A DNA stretch of 36,662 nt from an uncultured Acidobacterium sp. Its GTDB lineage: Bacteria; Acidobacteriota; Vicinamibacteria; Vicinamibacterales; UBA2999. Where the stretch lies: positions 1 to 36,662 of the forward strand of contig CAZBYY010000002.1 in NCBI GenBank assembly GCA_964495855.1. The letters run 5' to 3'. This document shows, piece after piece, positions 430 through 24,775 of the stretch (position 1 is the stretch's first letter; the number at the start of each line of letters is the position of its first letter). The notes beneath the pieces were generated by a model, which worked only from the letters and a program-made list of their open reading frames with translations, ran no database searches and was not told where the DNA came from. Made by a program: the position numbers and the translations under genes.

Positions 430-1197
430 TCAATTCGCGGCCGCAGCCGCGCCGCGCCTCCAGGCGCGAAGAAAGATCGGCACGATCTGCGGGTCGCGCA
501 CCAGGTAGCGATGCGCCAGCCGTCGCGGCTCTCGCCAGAGGCGATACGACCATTCGAGTCCCGCGTCCGACATCCATGCCGGCGCGCGCTTCACGTGCCC
601 GGCGGCGAAGTCGAGCGCGGCACCAAGGCCAATGCACACGGCCGGGGCGACGGCGTCGCGATAGCGGGCCATCCACCATTCCTGCCGGGGACATCCGAGC
701 GCGAGGATGACCAGTTGCGCTCCTGATTCGCGGATCGCGCGCACCGTCGCCGACTGGCTCGGTAACGCCGTGTCGTCTGGCGACCACCACGAGGTATCGC
801 GGCCGACGATGCGGAGGCCGGGGTGAGCGGCGGTGAGGCGCGCGGCCGCGTCGCGCGACGCAGCCTCCGACGCGCCGAAGAAGAACACGCCCCACTCGCG
901 GTCGGCGGCCCGCTGCATCAGCGGACCGAGCAGGTCGGAACCGCTGACGCGCGCCGGCAGCGGCGAGCCGAGCAGCCGTGACATCCACAGCAGCGGCTGG
1001 CCATCGGCGAGCGAGAGCGTGGCCTCGTTGTAGATGCGACGCAGCTTCTCGTCGCGCGACGCGAGGACGATGTGATCGACATTCGGCGTGACGATGTAGC
1101 CGCCGCGTCGTGCGTCGATCGCGGATTCGATCGCGCGCAACGCACCGTCGCGATCGAGCGGGTCGATCCCAAGTGGACCGATCTGGATTCGTGTCAT
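430..1197 (-). CDS. WecB/TagA/CpsF-family glycosyltransferase (GT26)
   Basis: The 255-aa ORF reads MTRIQIGPLGIDPLDRDGALRAIESAI...GGYIVTPNVDHIVLA...LADGQPLLW...VFFFGASEAA...LALGCPRQEWW...IGLGAALDFAAG..KRAP.WM...GLEW.YRL..EP.RL..RY. These are the typical WecG/TagA family blocks. Confidence 0.85.
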   Translation of the reverse strand: MTRIQIGPLGIDPLDRDGALRAIESAIDARRGGYIVTPNVDHIVLASRDEKLRRIYNEATLSLADGQPLLWMSRLLGSPLPARVSGSDLLGPLMQRAADREWGVFFFGASEAASRDAAARLTAAHPGLRIVGRDTSWWSPDDTALPSQSATVRAIRESGAQLVILALGCPRQEWWMARYRDAVAPAVCIGLGAALDFAAGHVKRAPAWMSDAGLEWSYRLWREPRRLAHRYLVRDPQIVPIFLRAWRRGAAAAAN

Positions 1198-1260
1198 GCC
1201 CCCGCCTACAGCAATTCGGTTGCCATCGCGATTTCGCTCGAAATGCGAAAAACAGGCCTG

Positions 1261-1314
1261 AATTCGTCTCGAATTGAGCCAGCCAGGCTCGTCTCAAAAC
1301 GAGACCGCAGAGAC
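1261..1314. promoter_or_regulatory. Cluster of inverted/direct repeats (candidate enhancer-binding-protein UAS or operator) in the divergent EPS intergenic region
   Basis: There is a perfect palindrome aattcg-tct-cgaatt at 1261-1275. TCGTCTC is repeated at 1264-1270 and 1289-1295. GTCTC(1291-1295)-aaaac-GAGAC(1301-1305) forms an inverted repeat, and a further GAGAC lies at 1310-1314. The cluster lies about 45-110 bp upstream of the -24/-12 element at 1358-1373. Confidence 0.3.
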
Positions 1315-1357
1315 GGCGCGCGAGCGCATTTCCCCCTGAAACCGGGCGGAACAGATG

Positions 1358-1373
1358 CGGCATGGAAGATGCA
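1358..1373 (+). promoter_or_regulatory. Candidate sigma-54 (-24/-12) promoter for the plus-strand EPS operon
   Basis: CGGCATGgaagATGCA against consensus TGGCACG-N4-TTGCA. The invariant GG (1359-1360) and GC (1371-1372) have the exact spacing, and C4, A5, G7, T13 and A16 also match. It is intergenic, correctly oriented, and 15 nt upstream of the first plus-strand start (1388). Confidence 0.45.
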
Positions 1374-1387
1374 CGACGAGGCCGCGA

Positions 1388-1564
1388 ATGCAGCAACTGA
1401 TCTTGAACTCGGTGTTGATTGCCGCCTTCGCGATTCCCGCGATGGTGTTGCGTGACAGCGGCGATGACGGCAACGCCGACTACGCGCGCGTCCTGCGCCG
1501 CGTCGTGATCTTCGCCGGCGTGTACGTGCCGCTGTTGCTGTTCGTTTATCCCAGGTTGTTTTAG
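1388..1564 (+). CDS. Hypothetical 58-aa two-helix membrane micro-protein
   Basis: MQQLILNSVLIAAFAIPAMVLRDSGDDGNADYARVLRRVVIFAGVYVPLLLFVYPRLF has two hydrophobic helices joined by an acidic loop. It ends 9 nt before the receiver gene. I recognise no family. The start is chosen at the internal ATG of track ORF 1355..1564. Confidence 0.35.
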   Translation: MQQLILNSVLIAAFAIPAMVLRDSGDDGNADYARVLRRVVIFAGVYVPLLLFVYPRLF

Positions 1565-1573
1565 GAGAGCCCC

Positions 1574-1978
1574 GTGACGAGTCCGATGAATCGACGTATC
1601 GCGCTGGTGGTGGACGACTCGCCCGACATGCGCATGCAGATGTCGGCGATCTGCCGCCGCGAAGGTCTCGACGTCGTGGAAGTGCGCGATGGTGAGACGG
1701 CGTTGACGGAAGCGCGTGAGCGCCGCCCCGACATCATTTGCCTCGACCTGATGTTGCCGACGCTGTCGGGATTCGAAGTGTGCGAGCGGCTGAAAGGCCA
1801 GCCGGAAACGGCCGACATCCCGGTGTTGATCGCGTCGGCCCGGTCGTATCCGCAGGATCGCGCCGAGGCCGAAATGGCCGGTGCCGATGCCTACGCGATG
1901 AAGCCGCTGGACGTGGATGCGTTTGCCACGCAGGTGCGCACGCTCCTGTGGCAGCGCAGGAAGGACGCGCGCGCGTGA
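1574..1978 (+). CDS. Single-domain response regulator (CheY-like receiver)
   Basis: The receiver signature is complete: ALVVDDSPD, phospho-acceptor context IICLDLMLP, VLIASA and AYAMKPLD. AGGAG lies at 1563-1567, upstream of GTG 1574. An alternative ATG start is at 1586. Confidence 0.9.
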   Translation: MTSPMNRRIALVVDDSPDMRMQMSAICRREGLDVVEVRDGETALTEARERRPDIICLDLMLPTLSGFEVCERLKGQPETADIPVLIASARSYPQDRAEAEMAGADAYAMKPLDVDAFATQVRTLLWQRRKDARA

Positions 1979-3471
1979 GCAGCGGCGCGGATTCGTTGAT
2001 GTCGTTCGGGACCCTGGCGCAGTGGCAGGCGGCCGGCCGGCTGATCGCCGGCGGCATTCGCCGATGGCGGGCGCGCATCGTGCTGGTCACGCTGGTATTC
2101 AGCGTCACCGGCGCGATCGCGGCCGCCGTCTTGCCGCGCACCTACTCGGCTGAAGCGCGCCTGCTGGTCCGCAAGAACTACGTCATGCCCGCGCTCGCCT
2201 CGCCGCGCCGCGCCGTGCCGATCAATTCCGAAATGCCGCTGCAGTCGGCAGGCGTGATGATCCTGAGCCGGCCGTCGCTCGAATCGATCATTCGCGAGCG
2301 TCATCTCCTCGAGCGATGGGAGCGCGATCGCGCACCGATGCTGCGGGCGAAGGATCGCATCACCGAGTGGATCAAGGGTCCGGTGTCCGAAGACGACAAG
2401 ATCGACGCGCTCGTCGACCTGCTCGAAACGCGCATCCGGGTCGGCGTCGAGGATGAGGTGTTGAAGATCAGCGCCAAGTGGTCCGATCGCGACACCGTCG
2501 TCGAGATCGTGGACGGCGCGATCGATTCGTTCCTGGCGGCGCGGCGGAAGATCGACGTGCAGACGGTGGCGGACACGAATGCGATCCTGAGCGAGTTCGC
2601 CGGTCGAGCGCGCCAGCAGGTTGACGAGCAGCTGGCCGCAGTCGCGCGACGGACGGTGCGGCCTGTGCGCGTGGCCGTCGAACCCGCGCGGTCCACGACC
2701 GCATCCGCGATCGTCGCCAGTTCACCGTCCCAGCTGCGCCGCGCCATCGATGCCGCGCGAGTGCGCGTCGAGGCGCTCGAAAAGCAGCACGCCGACGCAC
2801 GCGCGGCGCTCGAAGCGCGCATCGCCGAACGGCGGAGTGTGATCACAGAAAGGCACCCGGAGATGCTGGCCCTGCGCCGCAACCTTGCGCAGCTTGCGGA
2901 CGATCCCGCCGCGCTGATCGACGCGCGCCGGGAGCTCAGTGACCTGCTCGCCGCTGACGAGACGACCGCGCCTGTGCCGTCATCACCAGCTGTGCAAGAT
3001 CAGTCTCCGCGTAAGAGGATGGTCTTGAGCTCGAATACCCAGCGAATCGAGCAGCGCCGCGACGAGGCCTACGCCAAGCTCGCCGCCGGCGCCACCGACG
3101 AGGTCACCGAACGGCTCGCCGTCGCAGACCTGCTCGAGCCGCCCGCGCCGAATGAGGATGCGGTCGAGGCCGACCGGGCGATCCTGAAATCGTCGATCGA
3201 GTCCTACCAGGACCTGCGCACGCGGCTCGACAACGTGCAGATCGAGCTGCAGACCGCCGAAGCCGCGTTCAGCCACAAGTATTCGACGACGGTGCCGCCG
3301 CAGCGGCCGCGCAAGGCCACCAGTCCAAATGTGCCGCTCGTGATCGGGGGCGCCGCCCTGGCGGGTCTCCTCGCAGGCATCGCGCTCGCGATCAGCGCCG
3401 AGCTGAAGGCGCGGTCGTTGTGGTCGCTGCCGGCGCTGCGCCAGTTCATCGCCGCGGAAGGGCGCGCGTGA
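1975..3471 (+). CDS. Polysaccharide co-polymerase / chain-length determinant (Wzz/GumC-like, no kinase domain)
   Basis: GTG 1975 overlaps the receiver stop (GTGA); an alternative ATG is at 1999. The N-terminal TM is IVLVTLVFSVTGAIAAAV, followed by LPRTYSAEARLLV. A long Ala/Arg/Glu-rich coiled-coil periplasmic region precedes the C-terminal TM VIGGAALAGLLAGIALAISA. The first 79 codons of track ORF 1738..3471 overlap the receiver gene and are rejected. Confidence 0.7.
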   Translation: MSSGADSLMSFGTLAQWQAAGRLIAGGIRRWRARIVLVTLVFSVTGAIAAAVLPRTYSAEARLLVRKNYVMPALASPRRAVPINSEMPLQSAGVMILSRPSLESIIRERHLLERWERDRAPMLRAKDRITEWIKGPVSEDDKIDALVDLLETRIRVGVEDEVLKISAKWSDRDTVVEIVDGAIDSFLAARRKIDVQTVADTNAILSEFAGRARQQVDEQLAAVARRTVRPVRVAVEPARSTTASAIVASSPSQLRRAIDAARVRVEALEKQHADARAALEARIAERRSVITERHPEMLALRRNLAQLADDPAALIDARRELSDLLAADETTAPVPSSPAVQDQSPRKRMVLSSNTQRIEQRRDEAYAKLAAGATDEVTERLAVADLLEPPAPNEDAVEADRAILKSSIESYQDLRTRLDNVQIELQTAEAAFSHKYSTTVPPQRPRKATSPNVPLVIGGAALAGLLAGIALAISAELKARSLWSLPALRQFIAAEGRA

Positions 3472-4946
3472 TGCGCACCGCCGATCGCATCGCGCCGGCG
3501 CTCGCGCTGGTCGCTCCAGCGACCGCGGCGTCGTGGGTGCTTGCGGCCGTCGGCGGCGGCGTGGCCGCCGCCGTGCCGACGATCGCTGTGGCCGCGCTGG
3601 CATTGGTGTTCGCGATGCCGATGCAATGGACGGCGCTGTCGATGCTGGGCGCCGCGTTGCTCGTCGACAATCCGGGCGAACGTCCCTCGGATGGCCGGTG
3701 GCAGTCGCCGCTCTTCGGTCCCGGCGAGTTCATTTACGAGAATCTGCACAAGCACACCGGCATCGACGCGCTGCGCTTTTCCGCCATCGAACTCGTGTTC
3801 GCGGTGTTGATCCTGATCGTGGTGGTGCGCAAGCTCCGGCGCGATCCGCTCGACGATCCGCGCGGCCTCGGCGCCTTGCCGAACCCGATGAAGCACGCGT
3901 TTGCCGGCTTCTTTGCCGTGATCGTCGGCCTCGAGATCTACGGTCTCGCGCGCGGCGGCGATTTCAAGAATTCACTCTGGCAGCTGCGCCAGATGTTCTG
4001 GCTGCCGGTGCTCGGCGTGTTGTTCGGCCACGCGATCAAGAGCCAGGCGGCGCGCCGGACGTTGCTGCGGCTGCTGCTCGCGGTCGCATTCGTGCGCTGT
4101 CTCTTCGGCGTCTACTTTTACGCTGCGATCGCGCGTCCCCAACAGATGGACATCGAGTACGCGATGACCCACTCCGACTCGATCCTCATCGTCGTCGCGG
4201 TGTTGATCGCCGTGACGATGCTCGTGGAGCGGCCGACGTGGCCGCACCTGGCGCTCAACGCGATCGTGCAGCCGGTGTATGCGGCCGGGTTGATCGTCAA
4301 CGACCGCCGCGTCGCCTACATCACGCTGGCCGCCGGCGTGCTGTCGCTGATCCTGCTCGGCCCCGCGCACCTCCGCGTGTGGACCCGCCGCGCGCTGCTC
4401 GTCGCGATTCCGCTGGGTCTGCTCTATTTGGCCGCCGGCTGGAACTCCAACGCCGCCATCTTCAAGCCGGTGCAGACGGTCCGCTCGCTGTCGTCGCGCG
4501 ACGATGCGTCGAGCCAGACGCGCGACATCGAGAACTACAACCTCACGCTGACGCTGAAGCGCAATCCCGTGTTCGGATCGGGCTTCGGCCACGAGTACGT
4601 CGAGTTCGTGCAGGCCAACCGCGTCGACCAGATCTTCGCGCAGTACCGCTACATCGCGCACAACGGCGTGTTGTGGGTGCTGTCGATTGCCGGGTGGTTG
4701 CCGTTCTCGCTGCTGTGGGCACTGTTTCCGACCGCCGTGCTGATGGCGCGGCGGGCCTACGACAGCAGCCGCGCGGCGATCGATCGCACGACGGCGTTTG
4801 CGGCGTTCGCCGCGGTGTTGTGTTTCGTCGTCCAGGCGTGGGCGGACATGGGCCTGCAAAGCTGGATGGGAACGCTGGTGTTGACGAGTCTGACGGGAGC
4901 GGCAGGGGCGCTGTGGACGGCGCGCGATGCCGAGGCGAGGGCGTGA
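3471..4946 (+). CDS. O-antigen ligase / Wzy-type polymerase family membrane protein
   Basis: ATG 3471 overlaps the upstream stop (TGATG). It is a multi-spanning membrane protein with a large loop and a Wzy_C-like block: NPVFGSGFGHEYVEFV...YRYIAHNGVLWVLSIAGWL. Confidence 0.7.
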   Translation: MRTADRIAPALALVAPATAASWVLAAVGGGVAAAVPTIAVAALALVFAMPMQWTALSMLGAALLVDNPGERPSDGRWQSPLFGPGEFIYENLHKHTGIDALRFSAIELVFAVLILIVVVRKLRRDPLDDPRGLGALPNPMKHAFAGFFAVIVGLEIYGLARGGDFKNSLWQLRQMFWLPVLGVLFGHAIKSQAARRTLLRLLLAVAFVRCLFGVYFYAAIARPQQMDIEYAMTHSDSILIVVAVLIAVTMLVERPTWPHLALNAIVQPVYAAGLIVNDRRVAYITLAAGVLSLILLGPAHLRVWTRRALLVAIPLGLLYLAAGWNSNAAIFKPVQTVRSLSSRDDASSQTRDIENYNLTLTLKRNPVFGSGFGHEYVEFVQANRVDQIFAQYRYIAHNGVLWVLSIAGWLPFSLLWALFPTAVLMARRAYDSSRAAIDRTTAFAAFAAVLCFVVQAWADMGLQSWMGTLVLTSLTGAAGALWTARDAEARA

Positions 4947-6130
4947 GCGTGGTGTCGATGGTGTTGGTAATGCTCGGAGTGGCGCCGCTGGCGATGGCCG
5001 CCTATTTGTTCATGTTGACGATGGCCTGGAAGCGGCCGCAGCCGATGCCGCGCCGCCACGAGGCGCGCCGCATCGTCGTCGTCGTGCCGGCGCACAACGA
5101 AGAGCTCGGTATCGCGGCGACTGTCCGCAGCCTGTTGGCGACTGATTACCCGCGCGATCGTCGACGCGTCGTGGTCGTGGCCGACAACTGCACCGACACG
5201 ACCGCGCTCGTGTCGCTTGCCGCCGGCGCCGAGGTGATCGTCAGGAATGATGCGGATCGGCGCGGCAAGGGATTCGCGCTGGCATTCGCGTTCGATCGAC
5301 TGCGCGAGCGCAACGACTGGGATGCGGTGGTGGTCGTCGACGCCGACAGCGACGTCACGCCGAACCTGCTCTGGTCATTCTCGGACCGGATCGCGATGGG
5401 GGAGCAAGCCGTTCAGGCGCTCTATCTTCCGCGTTGTGGAGAGGCCGCGGTCAGCGTGATCACCGACATTGCGTTTGCAGCGATCCACCTGGTGAGATCG
5501 GCGGCTCGCGAGCGGTTCGGCCTGTCGTGCGGGTTGCGCGGCAACGGCATGGCGTTTACGCGCGAGGTGCTCGCGCGCGTGCCGCACGAAGCGTTCTCGC
5601 GCACCGAGGATCTCGAGTTCGGGATCCAGCTGGGACTCTCCGGTATCCGCGTGGCGTTTGTGGGTGACGCCGTCGTGCGCGGCGACATGCCCGAAGCGTC
5701 GACCGCGGTCACGCAACAGCGCGAACGATGGATCGGCGGCCGGATTGAAATGGCGCGCCGTCACGCGGGCGGATTGATCCGTGAAGCGATGGGCCGCCGC
5801 AGCTGGATGCTCGCCGATCTCGCCGCCGACCTGATGGTGCCGCCCCTGTCGATCCTGGCTGCGATGCTCACGGCGGGAACGGCGATCGCTGCCGTCGTCG
5901 CCGCCAACGGTGATGGGGTTGCACCACTTGGAATCTGGGCCGCTGCGTTCGCGGCGCTGTTCGTGCACGTCGCTCACGCGGCGCGGCTGTCGGGCGCATC
6001 GCTGAGCCGGCTGCATCGCGCGGCGATCGCGCTGCCGGAATACGTGGCGCGCAAGTGCGCCATCGCAAGCCGCGCGCTGGTCACCGACGACCAGCGCTGG
6101 GTGCGCACGCCGCGCAAGGGAGAACTGTGA
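4943..6130 (+). CDS. Membrane-embedded family-2 glycosyltransferase, synthase-like (QxxRW type)
   Basis: GTG 4943 overlaps the upstream stop (GTGA). An N-terminal TM is followed by [49 protein letters not shown] and QRERW, with C-terminal TM helices. The upstream 470 codons of track ORF 3533..6130 are an off-frame shadow of the Wzy gene. Confidence 0.85.
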
Positions 6131-6684
6131 TGAAGAGCGGTCTGTGGGAAGACGCGCTGCACCTCGCCGCCGCGGCGCGCCTGGCGCGCACGCCGCGCAA
6201 CGCGTGGCGGATGATCCGCACCGACGCGTACTGGCTGCTGTTGCTGTTCCGGATGCGCAGCATCGTGCTGGCGTGGCGGATTCCGATCGTCAATCGCGTG
6301 CTGCGCATGATGCAGATGGTGTTTGGCGGCGTCGAGCTCGGCAACGACATCACGCTTGGCCGCGGCGTCTACTTCATTCATTCGCTCGGCACGGTGGTCG
6401 GCGGCACGGCGCGCATCGGTGATCGCGTGCGTTTCCTCGGGTGCAACACCGTGGGCACCGCGAGCGACAACGGCTACCCCGTGATCGAAGACGACGTGGA
6501 GATCGGCTGCGGCGCTCGCGTGCTCGGTCCCGTCCGTGTGGGCGCAGGCGCGGTGATCGGCGCCAACGCCGTGGTGTTGTCCGACGTGCCGGCCGGTGCC
6601 GTGGTCGTCGGCGCGCCGGCGCGCGTCGTGAAAATGCGTGCGACGCAACCGTCGCATTTGACCTTGTTGGAGAGTTCCCGATGA
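6130..6684 (+). CDS. Hexapeptide-repeat O-acetyltransferase (serine acetyltransferase/CysE-like, EPS-modifying type)
   Basis: ATG 6130 overlaps the upstream stop (TGATG). The left-handed beta-helix repeats are evident: [36 protein letters not shown]...[50 protein letters not shown]. Confidence 0.8.
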
Positions 6685-8276
6685 ATCCGATGGTGAGTGT
6701 GGTGATCGCGGCCCGCGGCCGCAGTGCGTCGGCCGCCAGGCTGCTGCGGCAGTTGTCGCAGCAGACGATTGGCGCCGATCGATTCGAAGTCGTGGTCGTC
6801 GACGATGGCTCGCCGGAACCGCTGGCGCCGCAGCTTGCGGTTCTCGACACGCCGTTTCCGCTGCGATGCGTGCGCATCGAGTGGAGCGGGCCGGCGGCGG
6901 CGCGTCATCATGGTGCCAGGCTGGCCACCGGCGATGTGCTCGTCTTCATCGACGACGACATGCAAGTGGCGCCGGAATTCCTGGCGGCGCACGTGCGGCA
7001 CCACGAGGAGCACCCGCGCACCGTCGTGCTCGGCCGCATCGATCCGGACGCGTCGATCGAAGAGATGCCACTGTTCGAGCGGTACCACGCGCGCCAGCTG
7101 GCGCGGTGGCAGGATGCGGTGGCCCGCGGGGCGCTGCGGCCGCGCGGCATGCATCTTTGCACCGGCAATGTCTCGATGCGCCGCCGCGATTACTTCGAGG
7201 TCGGCGGATTCAATTCGGCGCTGCAGCGCTCCGAGGACCGTGAGCTCGGCATCCGTCTCGAGGATGCTGGATGCCTGATCGTGTACGGTGCGGATGCGGT
7301 GTCGGTCCATTCGTCGGATCACACCGATCTCGAGAGATGGTTGTCGCGCGCCGACCTGTACGGCCGCATCGACCGCCGGATTGCGGACATGCATCCCGAT
7401 GCGGGTGCGCATCCGCTGAACTTCTGGCCGCTCATCCATCCGCTGTCGCGGCCGATCGTGGCACTGGTGCTCGTTGCTCCGGCGCTCGGCGGCGTGTTGT
7501 CGCGCGCGGCATTCCGGCTGGCGGCCGCGCTCGATCGCCTTGGCGCGGGATCGGCGGCGGTCACGAGCGCCGCGCTCGCGTACGCGCTGCAGTACTTCGC
7601 CGGCTATCGCGCGGCGTGCGGCAGCATCGCGCAGGTGCGCCGCGAGTGGCGCGCCGCGCGCGCGAATGGGGAGCGTGGCGCGTTGCATCGTTGCCTCGCC
7701 GCGATCCGTGCCGATCACAACATGATGCGGCACCACCGCCTGAAGTACCACGGTGACGTGATCCGTTCGGCGCGATTGCCGATCGATCTGGTCTCGAGGG
7801 TCGGGCTGCAGATGCTTGCGGTGTACCGCGTGATGCGGCTGTTTGCCGAGTGGCGCGTGCCGCTCGTGCCGCTCGTGCTGTCGCGGCTGATCCGGCATCT
7901 CTACGGCGCCGAGATCCATTGGAACGCGAAGATCGCGCCCGGCGTGTCGATCGTCCACGGCACGGGCCTCGTGCTCAGCCACGCTGCCGAGGTCGAACGC
8001 GGCTGCATCCTGTTCCAGAGCGTGACGCTCGGAGAAAGCATCGACGCCGAAACCGGCCGTATCGGCGCGCCGCGGCTGGCCGCCGGCGTGCACGTCGGCC
8101 CCGGCGCGACGCTCCTCGGACCGATCGAGATCGGCGCGTCGAGCAAGATCGCTGCTGGTGTGGTGTTGATGACGAGCGTGCCGCAGGGCACGCTGGTGAT
8201 GCCGCCGCAGCCGGTGATCAGCCGGAGGCGCGTGGGCGCGCCGCGCGCCGCGATGCGCGCCGCGTCAGCGGCCTGA
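6681..8276 (+). CDS. Fusion protein: N-terminal GT2 glycosyltransferase, hydrophobic linker, C-terminal CysE-like hexapeptide acetyltransferase
   Basis: ATG 6681 overlaps the upstream stop (ATGA). The GT2 blocks are [28 protein letters not shown] and EDRELGIRL. The hydrophobic segment is [15 protein letters not shown]. The acetyltransferase module is [31 protein letters not shown]...[40 protein letters not shown]. Confidence 0.8.
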
Positions 8277-9050: not shown

Positions 9051-9086
9051 TGCCGTCACTCGGGTGTGAAAGGTAGGATAAGTCAG

Positions 9087-9644
9087 ATGTACGGTCTGGT
9101 AAACCGTGCCATCGAACAGATGGTGCGATCGGAACACGGCGACGAGACGTGGCAGCGCATCAAGGAGCGCGCCGGCGTGACGGTCGAAGTGTTCATCAGC
9201 ATGGACAGCTATCCCGATGCGACTTCGTACGCGCTGGTCGGCGCGGCCAGCGAGATCCTCGGGCAGCCCGCCGATGCCCTGCTGGAGGCGTTCGGCGAGT
9301 ACTGGACGCTCTACACAGCGGAGCAGGGATACGGGGACCTGTTTCGGAAGGGCGGCACGTCGTTTCCGAGCTTCATGCAGAACCTGCATTCGCTCCACAC
9401 GAACGTGGGCCACTTGTTTCCGCACCTGCAGCCGCCCTCGTTCTGGTGCACGGATGTGACCAGCACGTCGATGCGCTTACACTACCAGTCGACCCGACAC
9501 GGGTTTACCCCGATGGTCGTGGGTCTCGTGCGCGGCCTTGGCCGCATGTTCGACACCGACGTCACGATCACCGTCGAACGCACGCGCGAACACGGCGCGC
9601 CGCATGACGAATTCCTGATCGAGTATCGCGCGCGTACTGCCTGA
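9087..9644 (+). CDS. Stand-alone H-NOX (heme nitric oxide/oxygen binding) sensor protein
   Basis: MYGLVNRAIEQMVRSEHGDETWQRIKERAG is a canonical H-NOX N-terminus. The proximal His context is NLHSLHTNV (His104, nt 9396-9398). The heme-propionate motif Y-x-S-x-R is HYQSTR (Tyr133 at nt 9483). AGG-rich RBS aaaggtagga lies upstream. Confidence 0.9.
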   Translation: MYGLVNRAIEQMVRSEHGDETWQRIKERAGVTVEVFISMDSYPDATSYALVGAASEILGQPADALLEAFGEYWTLYTAEQGYGDLFRKGGTSFPSFMQNLHSLHTNVGHLFPHLQPPSFWCTDVTSTSMRLHYQSTRHGFTPMVVGLVRGLGRMFDTDVTITVERTREHGAPHDEFLIEYRARTA

Positions 9645-12085
9645 TGGCCGTCAGCCTCTCCTCCTCGTCGGTGAGCGATCTGTTCCCCTTCCACGTCGCG
9701 TGCGACGGGGAGCTGCGGATCGTCCAAGCCGGCAGGAACTGGCCGAGCGTCAGCCCGGCCGTCGCGGTTGGTGCACGCATGGACGAGTGCTTCGAGCTCG
9801 TGCGGCCGCACCTGCCGCTGGCGGTCGAGACCTTCCGCAAGCTGCGCGGCACGGCGATCACGCTCCGCTGCCGTTCGAACAACCTTCGGCTCAAGGGACA
9901 GATGATCGCCGCGGAGGGCAGCGGCCAGTGGCTGTTCGTCGGCAGTCCGGCGATCGGCAGCATCGACGACCTCGCGACGTTCGGACTCACGCTCGATCAG
10001 TGGCCGGCGCATGAATCGGCGCCTGATTTCCTGTTCGTGCTCCAGGCCAAGGACGCCGCACTCGCCGATGCGCGGGCGCTGTCGGAGCGGCTCGACTGGC
10101 AGCGGGCCGAGCTCGAGCGCGCGACGGCGGCGCTGTCGGACGCGATGGCCCAGCGCGAATCGGCGCGCAGCGCCGCCGCCAATCGCGAGGCCTGGATTCG
10201 GGCCGTGGTCGATTCCGCCCTCGATGCGGTGATCGCCATCGACAGGCATGGAGTGGTCACGCTGTGGAGCGCGCAGGCCGAAGCGATCTTCGGCTGGAGT
10301 TCGGCCGAGTCGATCGGCCGCCGGCTCGACGAATTGATCGTGCCGCCGCAATACCGAGAGGCGCATCGGATCGGGCTGGCGCGCTACCTGGACACGGGCG
10401 AGGCGCACGTGCTCAATCGCCGCATCGAGTTGCTCGCGCTGCGCAAGAGCGGCGAAGAATTTCCGGTCGAGCTCGCGATCGCGCCGATTGATGACCGCGG
10501 GCACCTCGGCTTCAGCGCGTTCGTCAGCGACATCACCACTCGCCGCAGCAGCGAGCAACTGCTCCACCTGCAGCGCACAGTACCGCAGATCCTGGCCGGG
10601 GCGGCCACGATACACGATGCGGCGCGGCCGCTCCTCGAGGTGGTGTGCCGCTCGATGGGATGGGACGCCGGCGCGCTCTGGCTTGAACCAACGCAGGGCG
10701 AGGCCGCGGAGTGCGTGGGCACGTGGACCGGCGACCGCCAGCTGGAGGCCTTTGCCGCCGCACTCCAATCGCAGGATGCAGACGCCGCCGTTGACGCCGT
10801 TCCGCTCGCCCTCGCTGTGCCGATTGTCACGTCGCACGGCCTGCCCGCATGGGGCGATCACGGTGGCGGCCGATCGATCGGCGCGATGCGCTTCTACTCG
10901 CGCCGCGCCGCGCCGGTCGCGACCGACGTGGTCGCCGCCCTCGCCGGTGTCGCGAGCCAGCTCGGCCAGTTCATCGAACGCAGCCGCGCCCAACAGGACA
11001 GCGCACAGGCCGCACAGCGTCTCCGCTCCGTCGTCGACAACATGCTCGAAGGGCTCGTGCTCGTCGATGATCAGTTGCGCATCGTCGAGGCCAACCCGGC
11101 GTTCGCGAAGATGTTTGGTTACGAGCCGTTCGACCTGGTCGGGCGCTCGATCATCGAGATGATGCCGGACCGTCCCGAGTACCGCGATCAGGAAAACCTG
11201 ACCATGATGTACCGGCAGTCGCTCGGGCGAGTGTCGGAACACGAGGGCCGGCGGCGCAACGGCGCGGAGTTCCCGATCCAGCTGCAGGTGTACGAAGTCA
11301 CCACCGCCGATGGCGTGTTGATCGCCGGTCACGTGCGCGACCTGTCGCAGGAACGGCAGGCCGATCGATTGAAGAAGCAGTTCGTCGCGTCGGTCAGTCA
11401 CGAACTGCGCACGCCGCTGACGGCGATTCGCGGCTCGCTTGGCCTGCTGGCGCTCGGCGCCCTTGGTCCGCTCGAAGATGAGGCGAGGGAAGTCGTGAAC
11501 ATGGCCGAGCGCAATACCACGCGCCTCGTCGGCATCATCAACGACCTGCTCGACATCGAGCGTTTGCAGGCCGGCATGTTCACGCTGAGCCGGGCGGCAT
11601 TTCCTATCGATCGTGCCATCACCCGCGCGCGTGAAGCGATCGCCGCCATTGCCAGCGAGCAGGACATCACCATTGTCGAACCGCAGAGCGGCATCGAGGC
11701 GTGGGGCGACGAGTCGCGTGTCGTGCAGGTGCTCGTCAACTTGATCGGCAATGCGATCAAGTTCTCGCCGCGCGGATCGAGCATCGAGATCCACGTGACG
11801 CAACGCAAATCGGAGATCCGCGTCCAGGTGCGCGACCACGGCCGGGGGATCCCCGAGGAAATGCTGGCCGTCGTGTTCGAGCCGTTCCGCCAGGTGGAAG
11901 CATCCGACGCTCGCACCAAGGGTGGATCCGGCGTCGGCCTGGCCATCTGCCGCGGCATCATCGAGCAGCACGGCGGCACGATCGGTGTCGACAGTCGTCT
12001 TGGCGACGGCGCGACGTTCTGGTTCACCCTGCCGTCGAAACCCATTTCCGCAGCCGCGGCGACAGCGCCGGCTGTAGTAGCCTGA
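9644..12085 (+). CDS. Sensor histidine kinase: HNOBA (H-NOX-associated) - coiled coil - PAS - GAF - PAS - HisKA - HATPase_c, no receiver
   Basis: ATG 9644 overlaps the H-NOX stop (TGATG). The N-terminus LFPFHVACDGELRIVQAG...LVRPH...LRLKGQMI...WLFVGSPAIGSIDDL..FGLTLDQWPAH closely parallels the H-NOXA/PAS-like domain of soluble guanylate cyclase. The H-box is SVSHELRTPLTAI, the N-box NLIGNAIKFSP, G1 DHGRGIP and G2 GGSGVGLAICRGI. Confidence 0.9.
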   Translation: MAVSLSSSSVSDLFPFHVACDGELRIVQAGRNWPSVSPAVAVGARMDECFELVRPHLPLAVETFRKLRGTAITLRCRSNNLRLKGQMIAAEGSGQWLFVGSPAIGSIDDLATFGLTLDQWPAHESAPDFLFVLQAKDAALADARALSERLDWQRAELERATAALSDAMAQRESARSAAANREAWIRAVVDSALDAVIAIDRHGVVTLWSAQAEAIFGWSSAESIGRRLDELIVPPQYREAHRIGLARYLDTGEAHVLNRRIELLALRKSGEEFPVELAIAPIDDRGHLGFSAFVSDITTRRSSEQLLHLQRTVPQILAGAATIHDAARPLLEVVCRSMGWDAGALWLEPTQGEAAECVGTWTGDRQLEAFAAALQSQDADAAVDAVPLALAVPIVTSHGLPAWGDHGGGRSIGAMRFYSRRAAPVATDVVAALAGVASQLGQFIERSRAQQDSAQAAQRLRSVVDNMLEGLVLVDDQLRIVEANPAFAKMFGYEPFDLVGRSIIEMMPDRPEYRDQENLTMMYRQSLGRVSEHEGRRRNGAEFPIQLQVYEVTTADGVLIAGHVRDLSQERQADRLKKQFVASVSHELRTPLTAIRGSLGLLALGALGPLEDEAREVVNMAERNTTRLVGIINDLLDIERLQAGMFTLSRAAFPIDRAITRAREAIAAIASEQDITIVEPQSGIEAWGDESRVVQVLVNLIGNAIKFSPRGSSIEIHVTQRKSEIRVQVRDHGRGIPEEMLAVVFEPFRQVEASDARTKGGSGVGLAICRGIIEQHGGTIGVDSRLGDGATFWFTLPSKPISAAAATAPAVVA

Positions 12086-12090
12086 GGCGC

Positions 12091-13469
<1,379 letters not shown>

Positions 13470-13476
<7 letters not shown>

Positions 13477-15287: not shown

Positions 15288-15842
15288 ATGCGCACACGTC
15301 TTCTCGCCGCGATCGTGACGATCCTGGCCGTTGCTGCACCCGGCGCCACGGCGGCGTTTGCGCAAGCGGCTGCGCCCTCGCGACGTCCCGACGTGATCTA
15401 CGTGCCGACCCCACAGCCCGTCGTCGAGGCGATGTTGCAGGTGGCCAACGTGACCAGCAAGGACGTGGTCTACGATCTCGGCTGCGGTGACGGTCGCATT
15501 CCGGTGACGGCGGCCCGCAAGTACGGCGCGCACGGCGTCTGCTTCGACATCGATCCGGAGCGCATCAAGGAAGCCACGGCCAACGTGGCCACCAACAACG
15601 TCGGCAACCTCGTGAAGGTCGTGCAAGGCGACCTGTTCGAGCAGGACCTGAGCGGCGCGTCGGTCGTCACGCTCTACCTGCTGCCGTCGCTCAACGTGAA
15701 GCTGATGCCGAAGCTGATGAAGGAATTGAAGCCCGGCACGCGCATCGTGTCGCACGCGTTCGACATGGGCGACTGGAAGCCCGAGAAGGAACTCGACGTC
15801 GAGGGCCGCAAGGTTTACTACTGGACCATCCCGAAGAAGTAG
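15288..15842 (+). CDS. Class I SAM-dependent methyltransferase with an N-terminal signal peptide
   Basis: AGGAGG lies 8 nt upstream of ATG 15288. The signal peptide is MRTRLLAAIVTILAVAAPGATAAFA/QA. SAM motif I is VVYDLGCGDGRI, followed by the acidic post-I residue in CFDIDP. Confidence 0.8.
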   Translation: MRTRLLAAIVTILAVAAPGATAAFAQAAAPSRRPDVIYVPTPQPVVEAMLQVANVTSKDVVYDLGCGDGRIPVTAARKYGAHGVCFDIDPERIKEATANVATNNVGNLVKVVQGDLFEQDLSGASVVTLYLLPSLNVKLMPKLMKELKPGTRIVSHAFDMGDWKPEKELDVEGRKVYYWTIPKK

Positions 15843-15909: not shown

Positions 15910-17550
15910 TTGCTGCTCGCTGCCAGCGGCGGGTTTCGCACCACCGTTGGCGGCATCCGTCTTTCAGCGCGGTCGCCCGTTCCCGTCGCCGCCGTAGCCG
16001 TCGCCTACGGCGCTGCGTGGTTGGCCGCCGCGCGCAGACGCAACGCGGTTGCGAGCGATCTCGAATGGGCGTGGGCCGCGACCGAGCGCCGGTCGCGGGT
16101 GATCATCATCACCATCACGCTCAGTAGCGCCTTGCTGTCCGCGGTGTTCGAGACGAGGTCGGCTGCCGGCGCCGACGCGTCGGGCTACCTCAGCGAAGCG
16201 GCGATGCTGGCGCGTGGCGAGCTCTTTCATCAGGATGATCTCTTCGAGATCGTCGCCGGCCACGATCCCTTCCTCACCTCGCCGCTTGGGTGGCGGCCGT
16301 CGCCGGGTGGCGCGCGCCAATCGCCGACGTATCCGCCAGGGCTGCCGATGCTCATGGCCGTGCCGCACGCGATGGCCGGCATTGATGGCGCGTCGATCCT
16401 CGTCGTGGTGTCGGGGATGGTCGCCGTCGCTGCCACCGCGGCGATCGCCTTCCGTCTCGCGGGCGCAACCGCCGCGATCCTTGCCGCGATGCTGATCGCG
16501 TTCGCGCCGATCTTCATCCACCAGTCGATTCAACCGATGAGCGACGTGCCGGTCACCGCCGCGTGGATGCTGTGCTTCTTCTGCGCGATGACGAACCGCT
16601 CGCTCTCGGCCGGCGTCGCGTGCGCATTCGCGGTGTTGATTCGCCCCAACCTCGCGCCGCTGGCAATCGTGCCGCTCGTCGTCGTCGAGCGACGCGTCGC
16701 ATTCGCGATTCCCGTGGCGATCGCTGCGGCCGTGCTTGCTGCCCTGCAGTCCGCGTGGTACGGATCGCCCTTGCGGTCCGGCTATGGATCGACCGATGAA
16801 CTCTTCGCCTGGTCGAACATCGCGGGCAATGTTCCTCGCTACGCGTCGTGGTTTCTTTCGACGGCGCCGGCGCTGGCGATGGGCCTGCTGGGCAGCGTGC
16901 GACTCCGTACAAATCGCAGCGCCCAGGCCCTCGCCGTGTTTGCGGCGATGGTGATTGCCGCGTACCTCGTCTACGCCGTGTTCGATGACTGGTCGTACTT
17001 ACGATTCCTCCTGCCGGCGTTGGGCGCATTCGCGGTGCTGGCGGCAGTCGAATTGGCGGCGTGGATCGATCGATCGCCGATCGTGATGCGACCGCTGCTG
17101 CTGTTCGCCGTGGTCGCCGCGGTCACGACGCACGCGATGTGGTGGATGCAGCGCGCGGGCACCTTCGACCTGGCCGATCAACTTCGTCGCGTCTCCCAAG
17201 TGGCTGCCGTGATCAGTGATCGCACTCCAGCGCAGTCGGCCATCGTGTCGGGCGAGCAGAGCGGAGCGATGCGCTACTACACGCATCGGCCGATCATTCG
17301 ATGGGAGGCCGCCACGGCGTCGGCGTTGACCGATGCGGTCGCCTTCCTCCGCAAAACGAACCGTCCCGTTTTCGTCGTCCTCGATGCGTGGGAAGAAGGT
17401 CCCTTCCGCACCAAGCTCGGTGACGCACTGCCGTTGAACTGGCCTCCGATGCTCGACGCAGGAACGTCACACCGCACGCGGGTGTGGGCGCTCGCCGACC
17501 GCGATCGTTTTCGTAATGGCGAGCACGTCGACACCGTCCGAATCCCCTGA
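15910..17550 (+). CDS. GT-C fold integral-membrane glycosyltransferase (ArnT/PMT_2-like; family assignment tentative)
   Basis: It has about 12 hydrophobic segments. The first loop, ADASGYLSEAAMLARGE, resembles the D/E-x-x-x-Y-x-E-x-A-x-x-M loop of ArnT/PMT-like enzymes. A C-terminal soluble domain of about 120 aa follows. TTG 15910 is the first start in the frame, so the true start is uncertain. Confidence 0.5.
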   Translation: MLLAASGGFRTTVGGIRLSARSPVPVAAVAVAYGAAWLAAARRRNAVASDLEWAWAATERRSRVIIITITLSSALLSAVFETRSAAGADASGYLSEAAMLARGELFHQDDLFEIVAGHDPFLTSPLGWRPSPGGARQSPTYPPGLPMLMAVPHAMAGIDGASILVVVSGMVAVAATAAIAFRLAGATAAILAAMLIAFAPIFIHQSIQPMSDVPVTAAWMLCFFCAMTNRSLSAGVACAFAVLIRPNLAPLAIVPLVVVERRVAFAIPVAIAAAVLAALQSAWYGSPLRSGYGSTDELFAWSNIAGNVPRYASWFLSTAPALAMGLLGSVRLRTNRSAQALAVFAAMVIAAYLVYAVFDDWSYLRFLLPALGAFAVLAAVELAAWIDRSPIVMRPLLLFAVVAAVTTHAMWWMQRAGTFDLADQLRRVSQVAAVISDRTPAQSAIVSGEQSGAMRYYTHRPIIRWEAATASALTDAVAFLRKTNRPVFVVLDAWEEGPFRTKLGDALPLNWPPMLDAGTSHRTRVWALADRDRFRNGEHVDTVRIP

Positions 17551-17574: not shown

Positions 17575-19728
17575 GTGCGAAAGTTCGATGTCGTAATGCT
17601 GCTCGCCATCCTGGCGTTGGCAGCCGGCCTGCGCGTGTGGGCGCCCTGGGACGATGTGTTGAGCGGCCCGCGCGTGAACTTCCTCGAAACCGACGCGTGG
17701 TATCACGTGCGTCTCGCCGAAAGCCAGGTGCGCAATTTCCCGTATCGCATCACGGTCGACCCGTACGTTGCGCCCGACGGCGAGTACGTGCCCGTCGCGC
17801 CGCTGCTCGATGCCACGATTGCGTCCGTCGCGTTCCTGACGAAGGGCCGTGACGCCTCAACCGACTACATCGAGCGTGTCGCCGCGTTCGTGCCGGCGAT
17901 CGCCGGCGTGTTGTCGGTGCTGGCGGTGTGGGCGCTGGCGACCATTGCCTTCGATCGCCGCGCGGGACTCATCGCCGGCCTGCTGGCCGCGATCCTGCCC
18001 GGGCATTTCCTCGATCGCACGTTGATCGGCTTCGTCGACCATCACGCGCTCGAAGTGTTGTTTTCGTTCGCGACACTGGCGTGCATCGCCTACGGCACGG
18101 CGATCGGCGCCGGTGTGTGCCTGGGCTTGTATTTGCTGACCTGGGCGAGCGGCGCGTACTTCGTCTTCATCCTTGCCGCGTGGGTCGTGCTCACCGCGAT
18201 CGTAGCGCCAAAGTATCGCGACACCGCGAACCGGTTCACGGCGATCACCGCAGCGGTCGCGCTGGCGATGGTGCTCGTGTTCCAGAACCCCGCGTTGTAC
18301 CGCTACAACACGCAGGTGGCGTCACTGGCCGGACTGCTGCTCCTCGCTGTTGCGTTGATGTACCTCGGCGGCCGCGTCGTTCGCGCGATGGGAGTGATCG
18401 CGCTCCTCGCGATCGCGTTCGTCGCCGTCGCCTGGCTGGTCACGCCGACGCTCGTGCAGCAGGTGATCGCGGATGTTGGCCGCTTCCGTCCAGACCCGTC
18501 CCGAATGGCCGTGCTCGAAGCGCGCCCGTTGTTCCTCTACTCGGGCAACTGGGATTGGCGGCAGCCGTGGATCTTCTTTCGCAGCGGTTTCTACGTGGGC
18601 ATCGTGGCTGTCATGGCCCTGGCTGTCTCCGCGCTGCGATCGAGGCGCGTCGATCACCCCCTGATCGTCAGCTTCACGATTGCGAATTACCTGTCGACGC
18701 TCGGCCAGAACCGGTTCGGCTACTACCTCGTGCCGTCCACGGCCGTGGTGATCGGATGGCTGGCGACCCAGGTGCTCGACTGGGGCGGCGTCCCGCACGC
18801 GGACAACCCCTCCCCGAAGATCCGTCCGCGCATTGTCTTCCAGCGCGAGATCGCGGTGATTGCGGTCGCCGGCCTCGCGATCGCGCCCAACATCGTCCCG
18901 GCGGCGATCACGACCACTCGTGTGGGTGGCATGCCCGACTACTGGTTCCAGGCGATGCAGTGGCTGCGCGCGCACACGCCGGAGCCGTTCGGATCGGCGG
19001 ATTACTACTACACGCATTACGGCACCGAGATCACGCGGGCGTCGTTCACCGTCATGAACTGGTGGGACCAGGGCTACTGGATCGCGCAAACGGCGAGACG
19101 CGTGCCGGTCAGCAACCCCACGCAGACCGGCGCCGATACGGCGGCCATGCTGCTCACCGCGACGGACGAAGGCGACGCGCTCGCCAGGCTGTCGGCTACG
19201 CGATCAAAGTATGTGATCGTCGATTTCGAGCTGCCGTTTCGCGAGCAGGCCGACGGCTCGCTCGCGGGCCGTTTTCAAAATCTCGCTGACTGGGCGCGCA
19301 TCCCCACCGAGAAGTTCTACCAATTGTGTTTCGCGCGCCGGAATGACGCCGAGCCGTGGCAGCCGACGTGGATCTACCGCGAGGCGTACTACAGGACGAT
19401 GGCGTATCGACTGATGGTGCTCGGCGGACAGGTTGCTGAACCCGTTAACAACACCTACGTCGTCGAAACGCGCGAGCGCGTGGATTCGACCGGCCGCCGC
19501 TTTTGCGAAGTGGCGAACCGCTGGCAATACGCGCGTCCCGAGGATGCGAAGACCACGGCCGCACAACGCGGCCGCAACTTCGAAGCGGTGGGACTCACGC
19601 CGTGGCAGCCCGCGTTCTCGGTACCTGCGATCACGCGTCTGAAAGTCGCGGCCGAGTTCCGTGATCCCGGACAGAAGGCGAACGAGACTCCGATGGTGAG
19701 GATCTTCGAAGTCACGGATTCGCGCTGA
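17575..19728 (+). CDS. Oligosaccharyltransferase of the STT3/AglB/PglB family (archaeal AglB-like)
   Basis: The N-terminal ~460 aa are multi-spanning membrane. Motifs appear in canonical order: FLETDAWYHVR (D40, nt 17692), GFVDHHALE (D155, nt 18037), MAVLEARP (E315, nt 18517) and NWWDQGYWI (nt 19060-19074, the WWDYG motif). These are followed by NPTQ and KYVIVDFE. The start is GTG 17575 or ATG 17596. Confidence 0.8.
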   Translation: MRKFDVVMLLAILALAAGLRVWAPWDDVLSGPRVNFLETDAWYHVRLAESQVRNFPYRITVDPYVAPDGEYVPVAPLLDATIASVAFLTKGRDASTDYIERVAAFVPAIAGVLSVLAVWALATIAFDRRAGLIAGLLAAILPGHFLDRTLIGFVDHHALEVLFSFATLACIAYGTAIGAGVCLGLYLLTWASGAYFVFILAAWVVLTAIVAPKYRDTANRFTAITAAVALAMVLVFQNPALYRYNTQVASLAGLLLLAVALMYLGGRVVRAMGVIALLAIAFVAVAWLVTPTLVQQVIADVGRFRPDPSRMAVLEARPLFLYSGNWDWRQPWIFFRSGFYVGIVAVMALAVSALRSRRVDHPLIVSFTIANYLSTLGQNRFGYYLVPSTAVVIGWLATQVLDWGGVPHADNPSPKIRPRIVFQREIAVIAVAGLAIAPNIVPAAITTTRVGGMPDYWFQAMQWLRAHTPEPFGSADYYYTHYGTEITRASFTVMNWWDQGYWIAQTARRVPVSNPTQTGADTAAMLLTATDEGDALARLSATRSKYVIVDFELPFREQADGSLAGRFQNLADWARIPTEKFYQLCFARRNDAEPWQPTWIYREAYYRTMAYRLMVLGGQVAEPVNNTYVVETRERVDSTGRRFCEVANRWQYARPEDAKTTAAQRGRNFEAVGLTPWQPAFSVPAITRLKVAAEFRDPGQKANETPMVRIFEVTDSR

Positions 19729-23425: not shown

Positions 23426-24775
23426 ATCGACTCCAGCTACGCCGCCTTCGTCACCTTCACGTTCGTTCTCGTCGTCACTCCCGGATCGACGACGGCAGTC
23501 GTCGTCCGCAACACGCTTGAATGCGGCCGCCGCGCGGGATACCTCACGGCGTTCGGCGCCGCGCTCGCCAATGCCACGATCGCGATCGCGTGCGGCCTCG
23601 GGCTCTCGGTGTTGATGACGGTGTGGCCGGGATCGCTCGAGGTGATTCGCATCGCCGGGGCGACGTTCCTCGCCTGGCTCGGTCTTTCGAGCCTCTACCG
23701 CGCGATGCGCATGCACGACGGCGGCATCAGCATGACGCTCGATCCCGACGCCGCGCCGGCCCGATCGCATGCCGGTGCGTATGTGGGGGACGGTCTCGCG
23801 ATCAACCTGCTGAGCCCGGTGATCATCAGTTTTTACCTGTCCGTCGTCCCGACCTTTATTCCGGTGGCCGCGTCGCGTTTCTATTATTCTGGTCTCGCGG
23901 CAACGCACGTAAGCATGGCGATGGCTTGTCATTCGATGTGGGCGACGGCGCTCGACCTGATGCGACGCTGGTTCGTGGCGCCGTGGACGAGGCGCGCCCT
24001 CCAGGCCGGCACCGGACTCGCGTTGATCGCCCTCGCGTTGCGCGTGCTCGGCGGCAGCGTGATCGCACCGGTGCATGCCCAAGCGCATGCGCGCGTGCCG
24101 GTCCTCGCCGAGCTGTTTACGTCTGAAGGCTGCAACAGTTGCCCGCCGGCCGATCGCCTGCTCGAAACGCTGCTGCGCGAACAGCCGATCGATGGCGTCG
24201 AGGTCGTGCCGCTCAGCGAGCACGTGACCTACTGGGACCACCAGGGGTGGCGCGATCCGTTTGACTCGCAGCAGTTCACGCAGCGCCAGCAGCAATACGG
24301 CCTGCGATTCAACCTCGATTCGATCTACACGCCGCAACTCGTGGTCGACGGCAGCCGCGAGATGATCGGCAGCGATCGACAGGCGGTGGAGAAGTCGCTG
24401 CGCGAGGCGGCCGCCGCAATCAAGACGCCACTGCAGGTGCACGTCGATGCGAACACGGCCGCGAGCGTGGATGTGTCCGCACGCGTGACGGCGCCGCCAG
24501 ACGAACGCTCCGCCGAGCTGTGGTTTGCGCTGACCGAAGATCATCTCGTCGTGCAGGTCACCCGCGGCGAGAACGCAGACAAGACGCTGACGCATTCGGG
24601 TGTCGTGCGCGTGCTGCTCAGTGCCGGCTCCGCGGATGTCAGCTCGAAAAAGGTGTCGTTCAAGTACCTGCCGGACTGGAAGCGCGAGAACCTGCGCGTC
24701 GTCTCGTTCCTCCAGTCGCGCAAGACACGCCGGGTACTGGCGGTCGGAACCACGTCGATTGGATCCCCGAAGTAA
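23426..24775 (+). CDS. LysE/RhtB-family translocator fused in frame to a DUF1223 domain (start codon uncertain)
   Basis: The frame is open from before 23414. From 23426 it reads IDSSYAAFVTFTFVLVVTPGSTTAVVVRNTLECGRRAGYLTAFGAALAN..., which is a LysE N-terminus. The first ATG/GTG/TTG in frame is only at 23609, after the first two helices. The C-terminal half, VPVLAELFTSEGCNSCPPADRLL...HVTYWDHQGWRDPF, is DUF1223. Confidence 0.5.
   Translation: MDSSYAAFVTFTFVLVVTPGSTTAVVVRNTLECGRRAGYLTAFGAALANATIAIACGLGLSVLMTVWPGSLEVIRIAGATFLAWLGLSSLYRAMRMHDGGISMTLDPDAAPARSHAGAYVGDGLAINLLSPVIISFYLSVVPTFIPVAASRFYYSGLAATHVSMAMACHSMWATALDLMRRWFVAPWTRRALQAGTGLALIALALRVLGGSVIAPVHAQAHARVPVLAELFTSEGCNSCPPADRLLETLLREQPIDGVEVVPLSEHVTYWDHQGWRDPFDSQQFTQRQQQYGLRFNLDSIYTPQLVVDGSREMIGSDRQAVEKSLREAAAAIKTPLQVHVDANTAASVDVSARVTAPPDERSAELWFALTEDHLVVQVTRGENADKTLTHSGVVRVLLSAGSADVSSKKVSFKYLPDWKRENLRVVSFLQSRKTRRVLAVGTTSIGSPK

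Follow-up and report, generated by a model that had tools for sequence, protein, structure and literature searches.

The stretch analysed here (the window) comprises positions 1 to 36,662 (36.7 kb) of contig CAZBYY010000002.1 from an uncultured Acidobacterium sp., a clearly bacterial, soil-type host of the order Vicinamibacterales in the phylum Acidobacteriota. An open reading frame (ORF) on its forward strand (17575..19728), which starts with GTG and codes for a product of 717 amino acids (aa), is present as described in the original prediction, and the product is confirmed as a full-length GT66 oligosaccharyltransferase (OST) of the AglB type, rather than of the PglB or STT3 type. The gene is hereafter termed aglB. 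An ATG seven codons downstream (17596) may serve as the start instead, because the database copy of the protein (P0001) is 710 aa long; no clear ribosome-binding site precedes either the GTG at 17575 or the ATG at 17596. The guanine-plus-cytosine (GC) fractions at the three codon positions of aglB (0.63/0.48/0.84) are in line with those of the adjoining genes and typical of the real genes of this window, in which GC content is 65-69%. Promoter and terminator scans between 13000 and 23500 gave counts no higher than those in shuffled sequence, and Rfam and tRNA scans of the whole window returned no match.

A Pfam scan of the 717-aa product returned both PF22627 (AglB_core-like; 69.9 bits against a cut-off of 27) and PF02516 (STT3; 50.1 bits against a cut-off of 24.5), the latter being the profile search that had been suggested as a check on the prediction. 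The sole NCBIfam match is TIGR04154 (E = 4.5e-112), a euryarchaeal AglB subfamily named 'oligosaccharyl transferase, archaeosortase A system-associated', which covers residues 175-712, so that the C-terminal domain is common to both as well; unlike what the name of that subfamily implies, no gene for an archaeosortase, an exosortase or a PGF-CTERM protein occurs among the genes of the window. The best sequence match in the PDB is AglB-L of Archaeoglobus fulgidus (AfAglB-L; 3waj/5gmy), with a phmmer E-value of 1.2e-51 over residues 9-554; the next matches are to C-terminal domains of short AglBs from the same species. A family profile of 39 homologues (A1) retrieved AfAglB-L at E = 7.8e-70 and human STT3A at E = 0.013, and neither the single sequence nor the A1 profile matched PglB among the PDB sequences at E <= 10. 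The agreement between motifs and profiles is well past chance, and the Pfam and AfAglB-L matches, together with the bacterial neighbours of the gene, bear out the claim of an AglB/STT3 homologue in a bacterial chromosome.

The AlphaFold2 model of the aglB product, derived from A1, has a mean predicted local distance difference test (pLDDT) score of 73.4 and a predicted template modelling (pTM) score of 0.71, and in this model the GT-C membrane core of OSTs is followed by an external alpha/beta domain. In a Foldseek search against the PDB, AfAglB-L ranked first (7e9s; E = 1e-23; template modelling (TM) score 0.69), ahead of eukaryotic STT3 (TM ~0.56) and PglB (TM 0.47), with all OST matches at a Foldseek probability of 1.00; further GT-C enzymes, DPY19, PMT and ArnT among them, rank below the OSTs. 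The structural comparison suggested alongside the prediction thus recovers the OST fold, with the archaeal enzyme nearest.

For the mapping of the active site, we take the key residues of AfAglB-L to be D47, D161/H163, E360, R426 and the WWDYG motif at 550-554, a numbering which the HMMER alignment reproduces. All four motifs named in the original prediction lie where it had placed them, on the forward strand. In the first external loop motif FLETDAWYHVR (residues 36-46; 17680..17712), D40 (17692-17694) aligns with the catalytic, metal-binding D47, while D155 and H157 of the second metal-site motif GFVDHH (residues 152-157; 18028..18045) align with D161 and H163. AfAglB-L itself reads NDHH at 160-163, the same D-H-H form as the product, in keeping with the suggestion that this form is the archaeal AglB flavour. 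E315 (18517-18519) in the fifth external loop (EL5) motif MAVLEARP (residues 311-318; 18505..18528), where the model is of low confidence, corresponds to E360 in the TIAE motif of AfAglB-L, and R380 in GQNRF (18703..18717) aligns with R426, whose role is presumably the binding of the donor phosphate. The WWDxG motif, which binds the Ser/Thr of the sequon, occurs as WWDQG (residues 496-500; 19060..19074), aligned with WWDYG 550-554, and NPTQ (residues 514-517) and KYVIVDFE (residues 545-552) follow it, as had been predicted. W190 aligns with W215 of AfAglB-L, and H81 of the latter is not kept, the product having P73 in this position. On this alignment, the product has every residue with which AfAglB-L binds its metal, its acceptor Asn and the phosphate of its donor.

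The mapped catalytic positions, including the Gln of WWDQG, are invariant in all 34 sequences of a Vicinamibacteria set drawn from genome loci, and remain unchanged while the rest of the protein diverges (43-89% identity). Across a broader family alignment (141 sequences; 30-100% identity), R46, D155, H157 and R380 are kept in 141/141 sequences, E315 in 140/141, D40 and G500 each in 139/141, W497 in 136/141 and D498 in 128/141. The fourth residue of WWDxG is free in the same family (Y in 75, Q in 12, H in 11 and F in 10 sequences, with other residues in the rest), and this position is also described as variable in Euryarchaeota (PMC11407970, a review). The Gln in WWDQG reads as ordinary variation.

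No clear DK or MI motif had been recognised after WWDQG in the original prediction, but alignment and family conservation point to a probable DK-motif variant, D550-F-E-L553 ... G565-R566-F567-Q-N-L570 (19222..19284, forward strand). D550-F-E-L553-P-F-R comes directly after the conserved strand KYVIVD, with G565-R566-F567-Q-N-L570 12 residues further on, and the segment D550...L570 can be aligned both with DISMATGKFWAM in P0237, a Methanosarcinales AglB which a neighbour-joining tree places as sister to AfAglB-L, and with the first residues of the DIEME motif in AfAglB-L itself. At the corresponding positions, the 141 family sequences hold D (103), G (121), K (62) or R (21), F (100) and L/M/I/V (134). 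The insertion-type DK motif takes the form DxxMxxxKxxx[M/I] in the Kohda-lab classification, and the segment is probably such a motif, in which the insertion is longer and Arg has taken the position of the Lys. The conserved residues suggest that the product is very probably a catalytically competent AglB-type GT66 enzyme.

Among the known systems, AfAglB-L (3waj, 3wak, 5gmy, 7e9s) is the best match in both sequence and fold, and has in common with the product the layout D...DHH...E...R...WWDxG, a single-subunit organisation and, presumably, an insertion-type DK motif. The two differ in the length of the chain (875 aa as deposited for AfAglB-L), in the lack of a Pfam AglB_L1 match in the product, in WWDYG and H81 as opposed to WWDQG and P73, and in the probable DK motif of the product, with about nine extra residues besides the Arg for Lys. 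PglB of C. lari and C. jejuni (3rce, 5ogl, 6gxc) is likewise a single-subunit GT66 enzyme of a bacterial host, with a GT-C core, a periplasmic domain and a WWDYG-type sequon recognition motif. PglB, however, has D-x-D and an MI motif where the product has D-H-H and a probable DK-type motif, shows no sequence match at the profile level, and is the weakest of the OST fold matches; the product does not belong to the PglB clade, and no pgl-like genes lie beside aglB in the window. Eukaryotic STT3 (6s7o, 6ezn, 8agc) shares the fold and the order of the catalytic motifs, but is matched only marginally in sequence, forms part of a multi-subunit complex and uses dolichol-diphosphate donors. To our knowledge, the characterised bacterial N-oligosaccharyltransferases are the PglB enzymes of the Campylobacterota and a few Desulfobacterota.

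Bacterial genes flank aglB, including those for a sigma-54 activator, AcrB/HlyD, MscL and CtaA, and a penicillin amidase is also encoded in the window. A genome scan, which took one genome per GTDB species, identified 54 aglB loci, approximately 44 of them in Vicinamibacterales/Acidobacteriota bins (36-73% identity) and approximately ten distant copies (24-32% identity) in bins of the Myxococcota, 'Deltaproteobacteria' and Planctomycetota. Searches with the window proteins (tblastn) showed the locus to be syntenic in about 40 Vicinamibacterales/Acidobacteriota bins, among them a closed 5.35 Mb chromosome, in the order PD40 protein (reverse strand), methyltransferase, GT-C, a variable insert, aglB, a further variable insert and ctaA, followed by a TPR protein, DUF1684, DUF1223/LysE and an FAD oxidase. 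Across the syntenic loci, AglB is 43-73% and the methyltransferase 65-90% identical. The variable inserts chiefly contain MacB/FtsX permeases and unrelated enzymes, with the exception of two loci with glycan-type genes, L033 (GT2 and an ABC exporter) and L037 (ABC exporter). Given this order conserved over about 40 bins, aglB has long been part of the chromosome by vertical inheritance, and is neither contamination nor recently acquired. That the gene is an inactive relic, or that it came with an archaeal contaminant contig or by very recent transfer, might be argued from the archaeal source of its closest solved relative and from the frameshifted copies found in loci L009, L039, L040, L041 and L044. 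The ORF in the window is, however, intact, its catalytic residues are invariant across 43-89% identity, its third-position GC equals that of its neighbours, bacteria-specific genes stand on both sides, and the synteny extends to a closed chromosome. Codon composition, bacterial neighbours, synteny and invariant residues together effectively refute this explanation, for which we see hardly any chance.

Several peculiarities of the bins were also observed. Those of L002, L003, L007, L009, L019, L020 and L021 are labelled as Acidimicrobiia, Cyanobacteria/Cyanobacteriota or Bifidobacteriaceae, yet their aglB is 59-73% identical to that of the window; five of them (L003, L007, L009, L020 and L021) share the syntenic locus, and on the short contigs of L002 and L019 aglB alone is present. 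The taxonomy given by the submitters is probably wrong for these seven. Two bins each contain two copies of the syntenic locus (L030 and L040 in one, L041 and L044 in the other), which suggests mixed strains within the bins and not paralogues. The interrupted aglB frames mentioned above are either assembly errors or pseudogenes.

The gene is by no means rare. When the representatives of 1.84 billion clusters (50% identity) were searched exhaustively, 2079 clusters matched at E <= 1e-3, of which 494 also passed E <= 1e-30; many are full-length with 30-40% identity. More than 500 close homologues were found, many from Acidobacteriota bins. Named homologues come from the Acidobacteriota, the Methylomirabilota, a Dehalococcoidia bin with bacterial neighbours and the Methanosarcinales. 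In a profile search of the nearest clades, all NCBI names are Acidobacteria, Acidobacteriota or Vicinamibacterales, the sole exception being a Cyanobacteria-labelled bin (P0009) derived from the syntenic locus L020/L055. Homologues are already named automatically, by NCBI/PGAP as 'STT3 domain-containing protein [Vicinamibacterales bacterium]' and by IMG as 'oligosaccharyl transferase (archaeosortase A-associated)' or similar, a name which PGAP also gives to some acidobacterial relatives. The neighbour-joining tree of 147 sequences is star-like, with most sequences lacking taxon labels, and no claim is made on branching relative to the archaea.

The absence of a pgl-type pathway beside the gene, as had been predicted, holds for this window, but related bacterial loci do have a set of lipid-linked-glycan genes. 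In L059, L060, L061, L063 and L064, all with bacterial neighbourhoods, the same orthologous gene set adjoins the aglB homologue, with 40-54% identity among the five loci (35% for the WecA-like part of a fusion in L059). The set includes a WecA-like polyprenyl-phosphate N-acetylglucosamine (GlcNAc)-1-phosphate transferase (PF00953), with a TIGR02380 score of 115.6 bits that does not reach the cut-off of 326.05, and two or three GT4 enzymes per locus. All loci but L059 also have a MurG-like GT28 enzyme, whose TIGR01133 score of 229.9 bits narrowly misses the cut-off of 250.25, and all but L060 have an MsbA/PglK-like ABC exporter, which in L059 is fused to the WecA-like enzyme. This layout is as would be expected for the assembly, flipping and transfer of a lipid-linked oligosaccharide, and its presence beside orthologues supports a role in N-glycosylation for the family. 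In two Vicinamibacterales loci, L033 and L037, an orthologue of the ABC exporter (45% identity) immediately precedes aglB in divergent orientation, which connects the present clade with this pathway. One of the GT4 enzymes in L063 (8793-9986; ...VLGDLARSPRMVNHAESLA...) may resemble eukaryotic ALG1 at its N-terminus; PDB and NCBIfam searches with this enzyme returned no match. Large repeat proteins were also observed by or near the aglB homologues in L063 (12253-14760), L033 (12269-13498) and L060 (17170-21003), with thrombospondin type 3, collagen triple-helix and CarboxypepD_reg/CLIPPER repeats; these could be acceptor glycoproteins.

We consider protein N-glycosylation the probable function of the enzyme. 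The OST would be an inner-membrane protein whose C-terminal domain faces the periplasm. D40, D155, H157 and E315 would hold a divalent cation and activate the amide, and WWDQG together with the DK-type motif D550...R566 would form the pocket for the Ser/Thr at position +2. The donor glycan would be built on a bacterial polyprenyl phosphate or diphosphate and flipped by an ABC exporter before its en bloc transfer to the Asn of N-x-S/T sequons in exported proteins. As the host is bacterial, the carrier lipid presumably cannot be the archaeal dolichol phosphate, and as the glycan-assembly genes are not adjacent to aglB in this lineage, they would have to be encoded at another place on the chromosome or in the genome at large. 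In sister acidobacterial lineages, the WecA/Alg7-like initiator, MurG/Alg13-14-like transferase, GT4 enzymes and MsbA/PglK-like exporter adjacent to the gene would supply these steps. It is speculation that the first two steps build a GlcNAc-GlcNAc core. The wider proposal, that Vicinamibacterales and many other Acidobacteriota carry out archaeal/eukaryote-style N-glycosylation with an AglB-type OST and these WecA/Alg7-like, MurG/Alg13-14-like, GT4 and MsbA/PglK-like components, has in our estimation an even chance of being correct.

Immediately upstream of aglB lies a gene for a 546-aa GT-C glycosyltransferase (15910..17550, forward strand), a possible partner of the OST. Its PMT_2 and GT87 Pfam matches are both sub-threshold and it has no significant sequence match to any PDB structure, but its AlphaFold2 model (pLDDT 87.6) is closest in fold to ArnT (5ezm/5f15; TM 0.54), with OSTs and ALG12/ALG9 next. 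The predicted fold suggests a GT-C enzyme which presumably uses a polyprenyl-phosphate sugar, as ArnT, of similar size, uses an undecaprenyl-phosphate sugar. The gene stands upstream of aglB in approximately 30 of the 40 or so syntenic loci, and as it is missing there in L011, L021, L033, L037 and L062, its link to aglB is suggestive only. This neighbour bears on the possibility that the aglB product, OST-like in fold and with an active metal site, uses an acceptor other than protein Asn, such as a lipid, an envelope polysaccharide or a hydroxyl group, and works with the ArnT-like GT-C in envelope modification. Such an acceptor would fit the ArnT-like protein being the usual upstream neighbour, the different GT-C that immediately precedes aglB in L038, a locus outside the synteny, the lack of an N-glycan pathway next to the gene, and the loss of WWDxG in a related clade, which indicates that the scaffold can drift in function. 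WWDxG and the probable DK-type motif, elements which in solved OSTs bind the Ser/Thr at +2 of the sequon, are, however, invariant in the present clade, sister lineages have the gene within a classical cluster for lipid-linked oligosaccharides with a flippase, and the GT-C neighbour is absent from several syntenic loci; we regard another acceptor as unlikely and protein Asn as the favoured one. The GT-C of L038 is TMEM260-like, and shows no detectable homology to the GT-C of the window (hhalign probability 0.2%). No homologues of the window methyltransferase and GT-C were found in the Methylomirabilota-type locus L057 or in L058. In L066, a probably archaeal locus with inteins, AglB, a PMT_2 GT-C and several methyltransferases are encoded in one cluster.

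The clade without WWDxG comprises the distant homologues in L045-L054, from the Myxococcota, 'Deltaproteobacteria' and Planctomycetota bins. These keep the D, DHH, E and R residues at 24-32% identity, and the three members scanned (L045, L048 and L052) match Pfam STT3, AglB_core-like and AglB_L1. They may have changed acceptor.

A number of points weigh against the reading of aglB as a gene for N-glycosylation. The model of the product is only moderate in quality and is poor at the first external loop (EL1), EL5 and residues 469-519 around WWDQG. The TIGR04154 score of 375.9 bits falls below the curated cut-off of 450, so that the product lies outside that subfamily as defined. The DK assignment derives from alignment alone, with Arg566 in place of the key Lys. 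No lipid-linked-glycan genes were found adjacent to aglB in a gene-content scan of the window, and most of the syntenic loci also lack them. In the L045-L054 clade, WWDxG is replaced by SWDYGH, PWPIGH, AWGDGH and similar motifs, so that not every bacterial AglB homologue need be a sequon-reading OST.

Further upstream in the window, a Wzy-type polysaccharide cluster (430-8276) encodes WecG/TagA (on the reverse strand), a Wzz-like protein, Wzy_C, GT2, a hexapeptide acetyltransferase and a GT2-hexapeptide fusion; the GT2 is hidden within a long ORF (3533-6130; GT2 domain at residues 514-789). PglB-type enzymes accept O-antigen-type undecaprenyl-diphosphate glycans, and the presence of this cluster 9-17 kb upstream of aglB could mean that the enzyme serves it, with its undecaprenyl-linked repeat unit as donor. 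A regulatory unit and an opposite-strand gene lie between the two, however, and the cluster occurs beside aglB in none of the approximately 40 syntenic loci, which makes this donor a decidedly improbable one. The intervening unit (9066-13476, forward strand) is an apparent gas-sensing two-component system for nitric oxide or oxygen, with an H-NOX (HNOB) protein, an HNOBA-PAS-PAS histidine kinase and a sigma-54-dependent response regulator in a row, and is not syntenic with aglB in other genomes. Between the unit and the GT-C gene lies a small gene for a class I methyltransferase-like protein of 184 aa (15288..15842, forward strand), which starts with an ATG at 15288 after GGAGG and matches Pfam methyltransferase families. 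It is a highly conserved syntenic neighbour of aglB. Its N-terminus is signal-peptide-like (MRTRLLAAIVTILAVAAPGATAAFA, ending in AFA and followed by QA), and periplasmic export would be odd for an S-adenosylmethionine-dependent enzyme. Downstream of aglB, a single ORF (23609-24775, forward strand) combines a LysE-type translocator (residues 7-147) with DUF1223 (residues 167-369); the related loci have LysE called on its own, with a length of 182-214 aa.

Bacterial homologues of Stt3/AglB, few in number, have been reported as nested among the euryarchaeal AglBs (Lombard 2016, PMC4973528), and in a soil CAZy survey the Acidobacteria were among the phyla to which GT66 reads were assigned (PMC13087260). 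A literature search covering few subscription journals found no study in which an acidobacterial AglB is analysed or tested. The gene family is common in metagenomes and already annotated automatically. The acidobacterial AglB lineage is separate from PglB and stably inherited in an abundant soil phylum, with its active site intact as judged by alignment. Should the N-glycosylation reading prove true, a major soil phylum would join the short list of bacteria with general N-glycosylation, and if the enzyme is active, N-glycosylation would be wider in bacteria than the PglB paradigm implies. The gene set beside the sister-lineage orthologues provides a concrete cluster for heterologous expression. 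Active enzymes of this type would furthermore offer single-subunit OSTs for glycoengineering, probably without the need of PglB for an acidic residue at position -2, as AglB biology suggests, and would represent a testable case of an archaeal-type OST adapting to bacterial polyprenol carriers.

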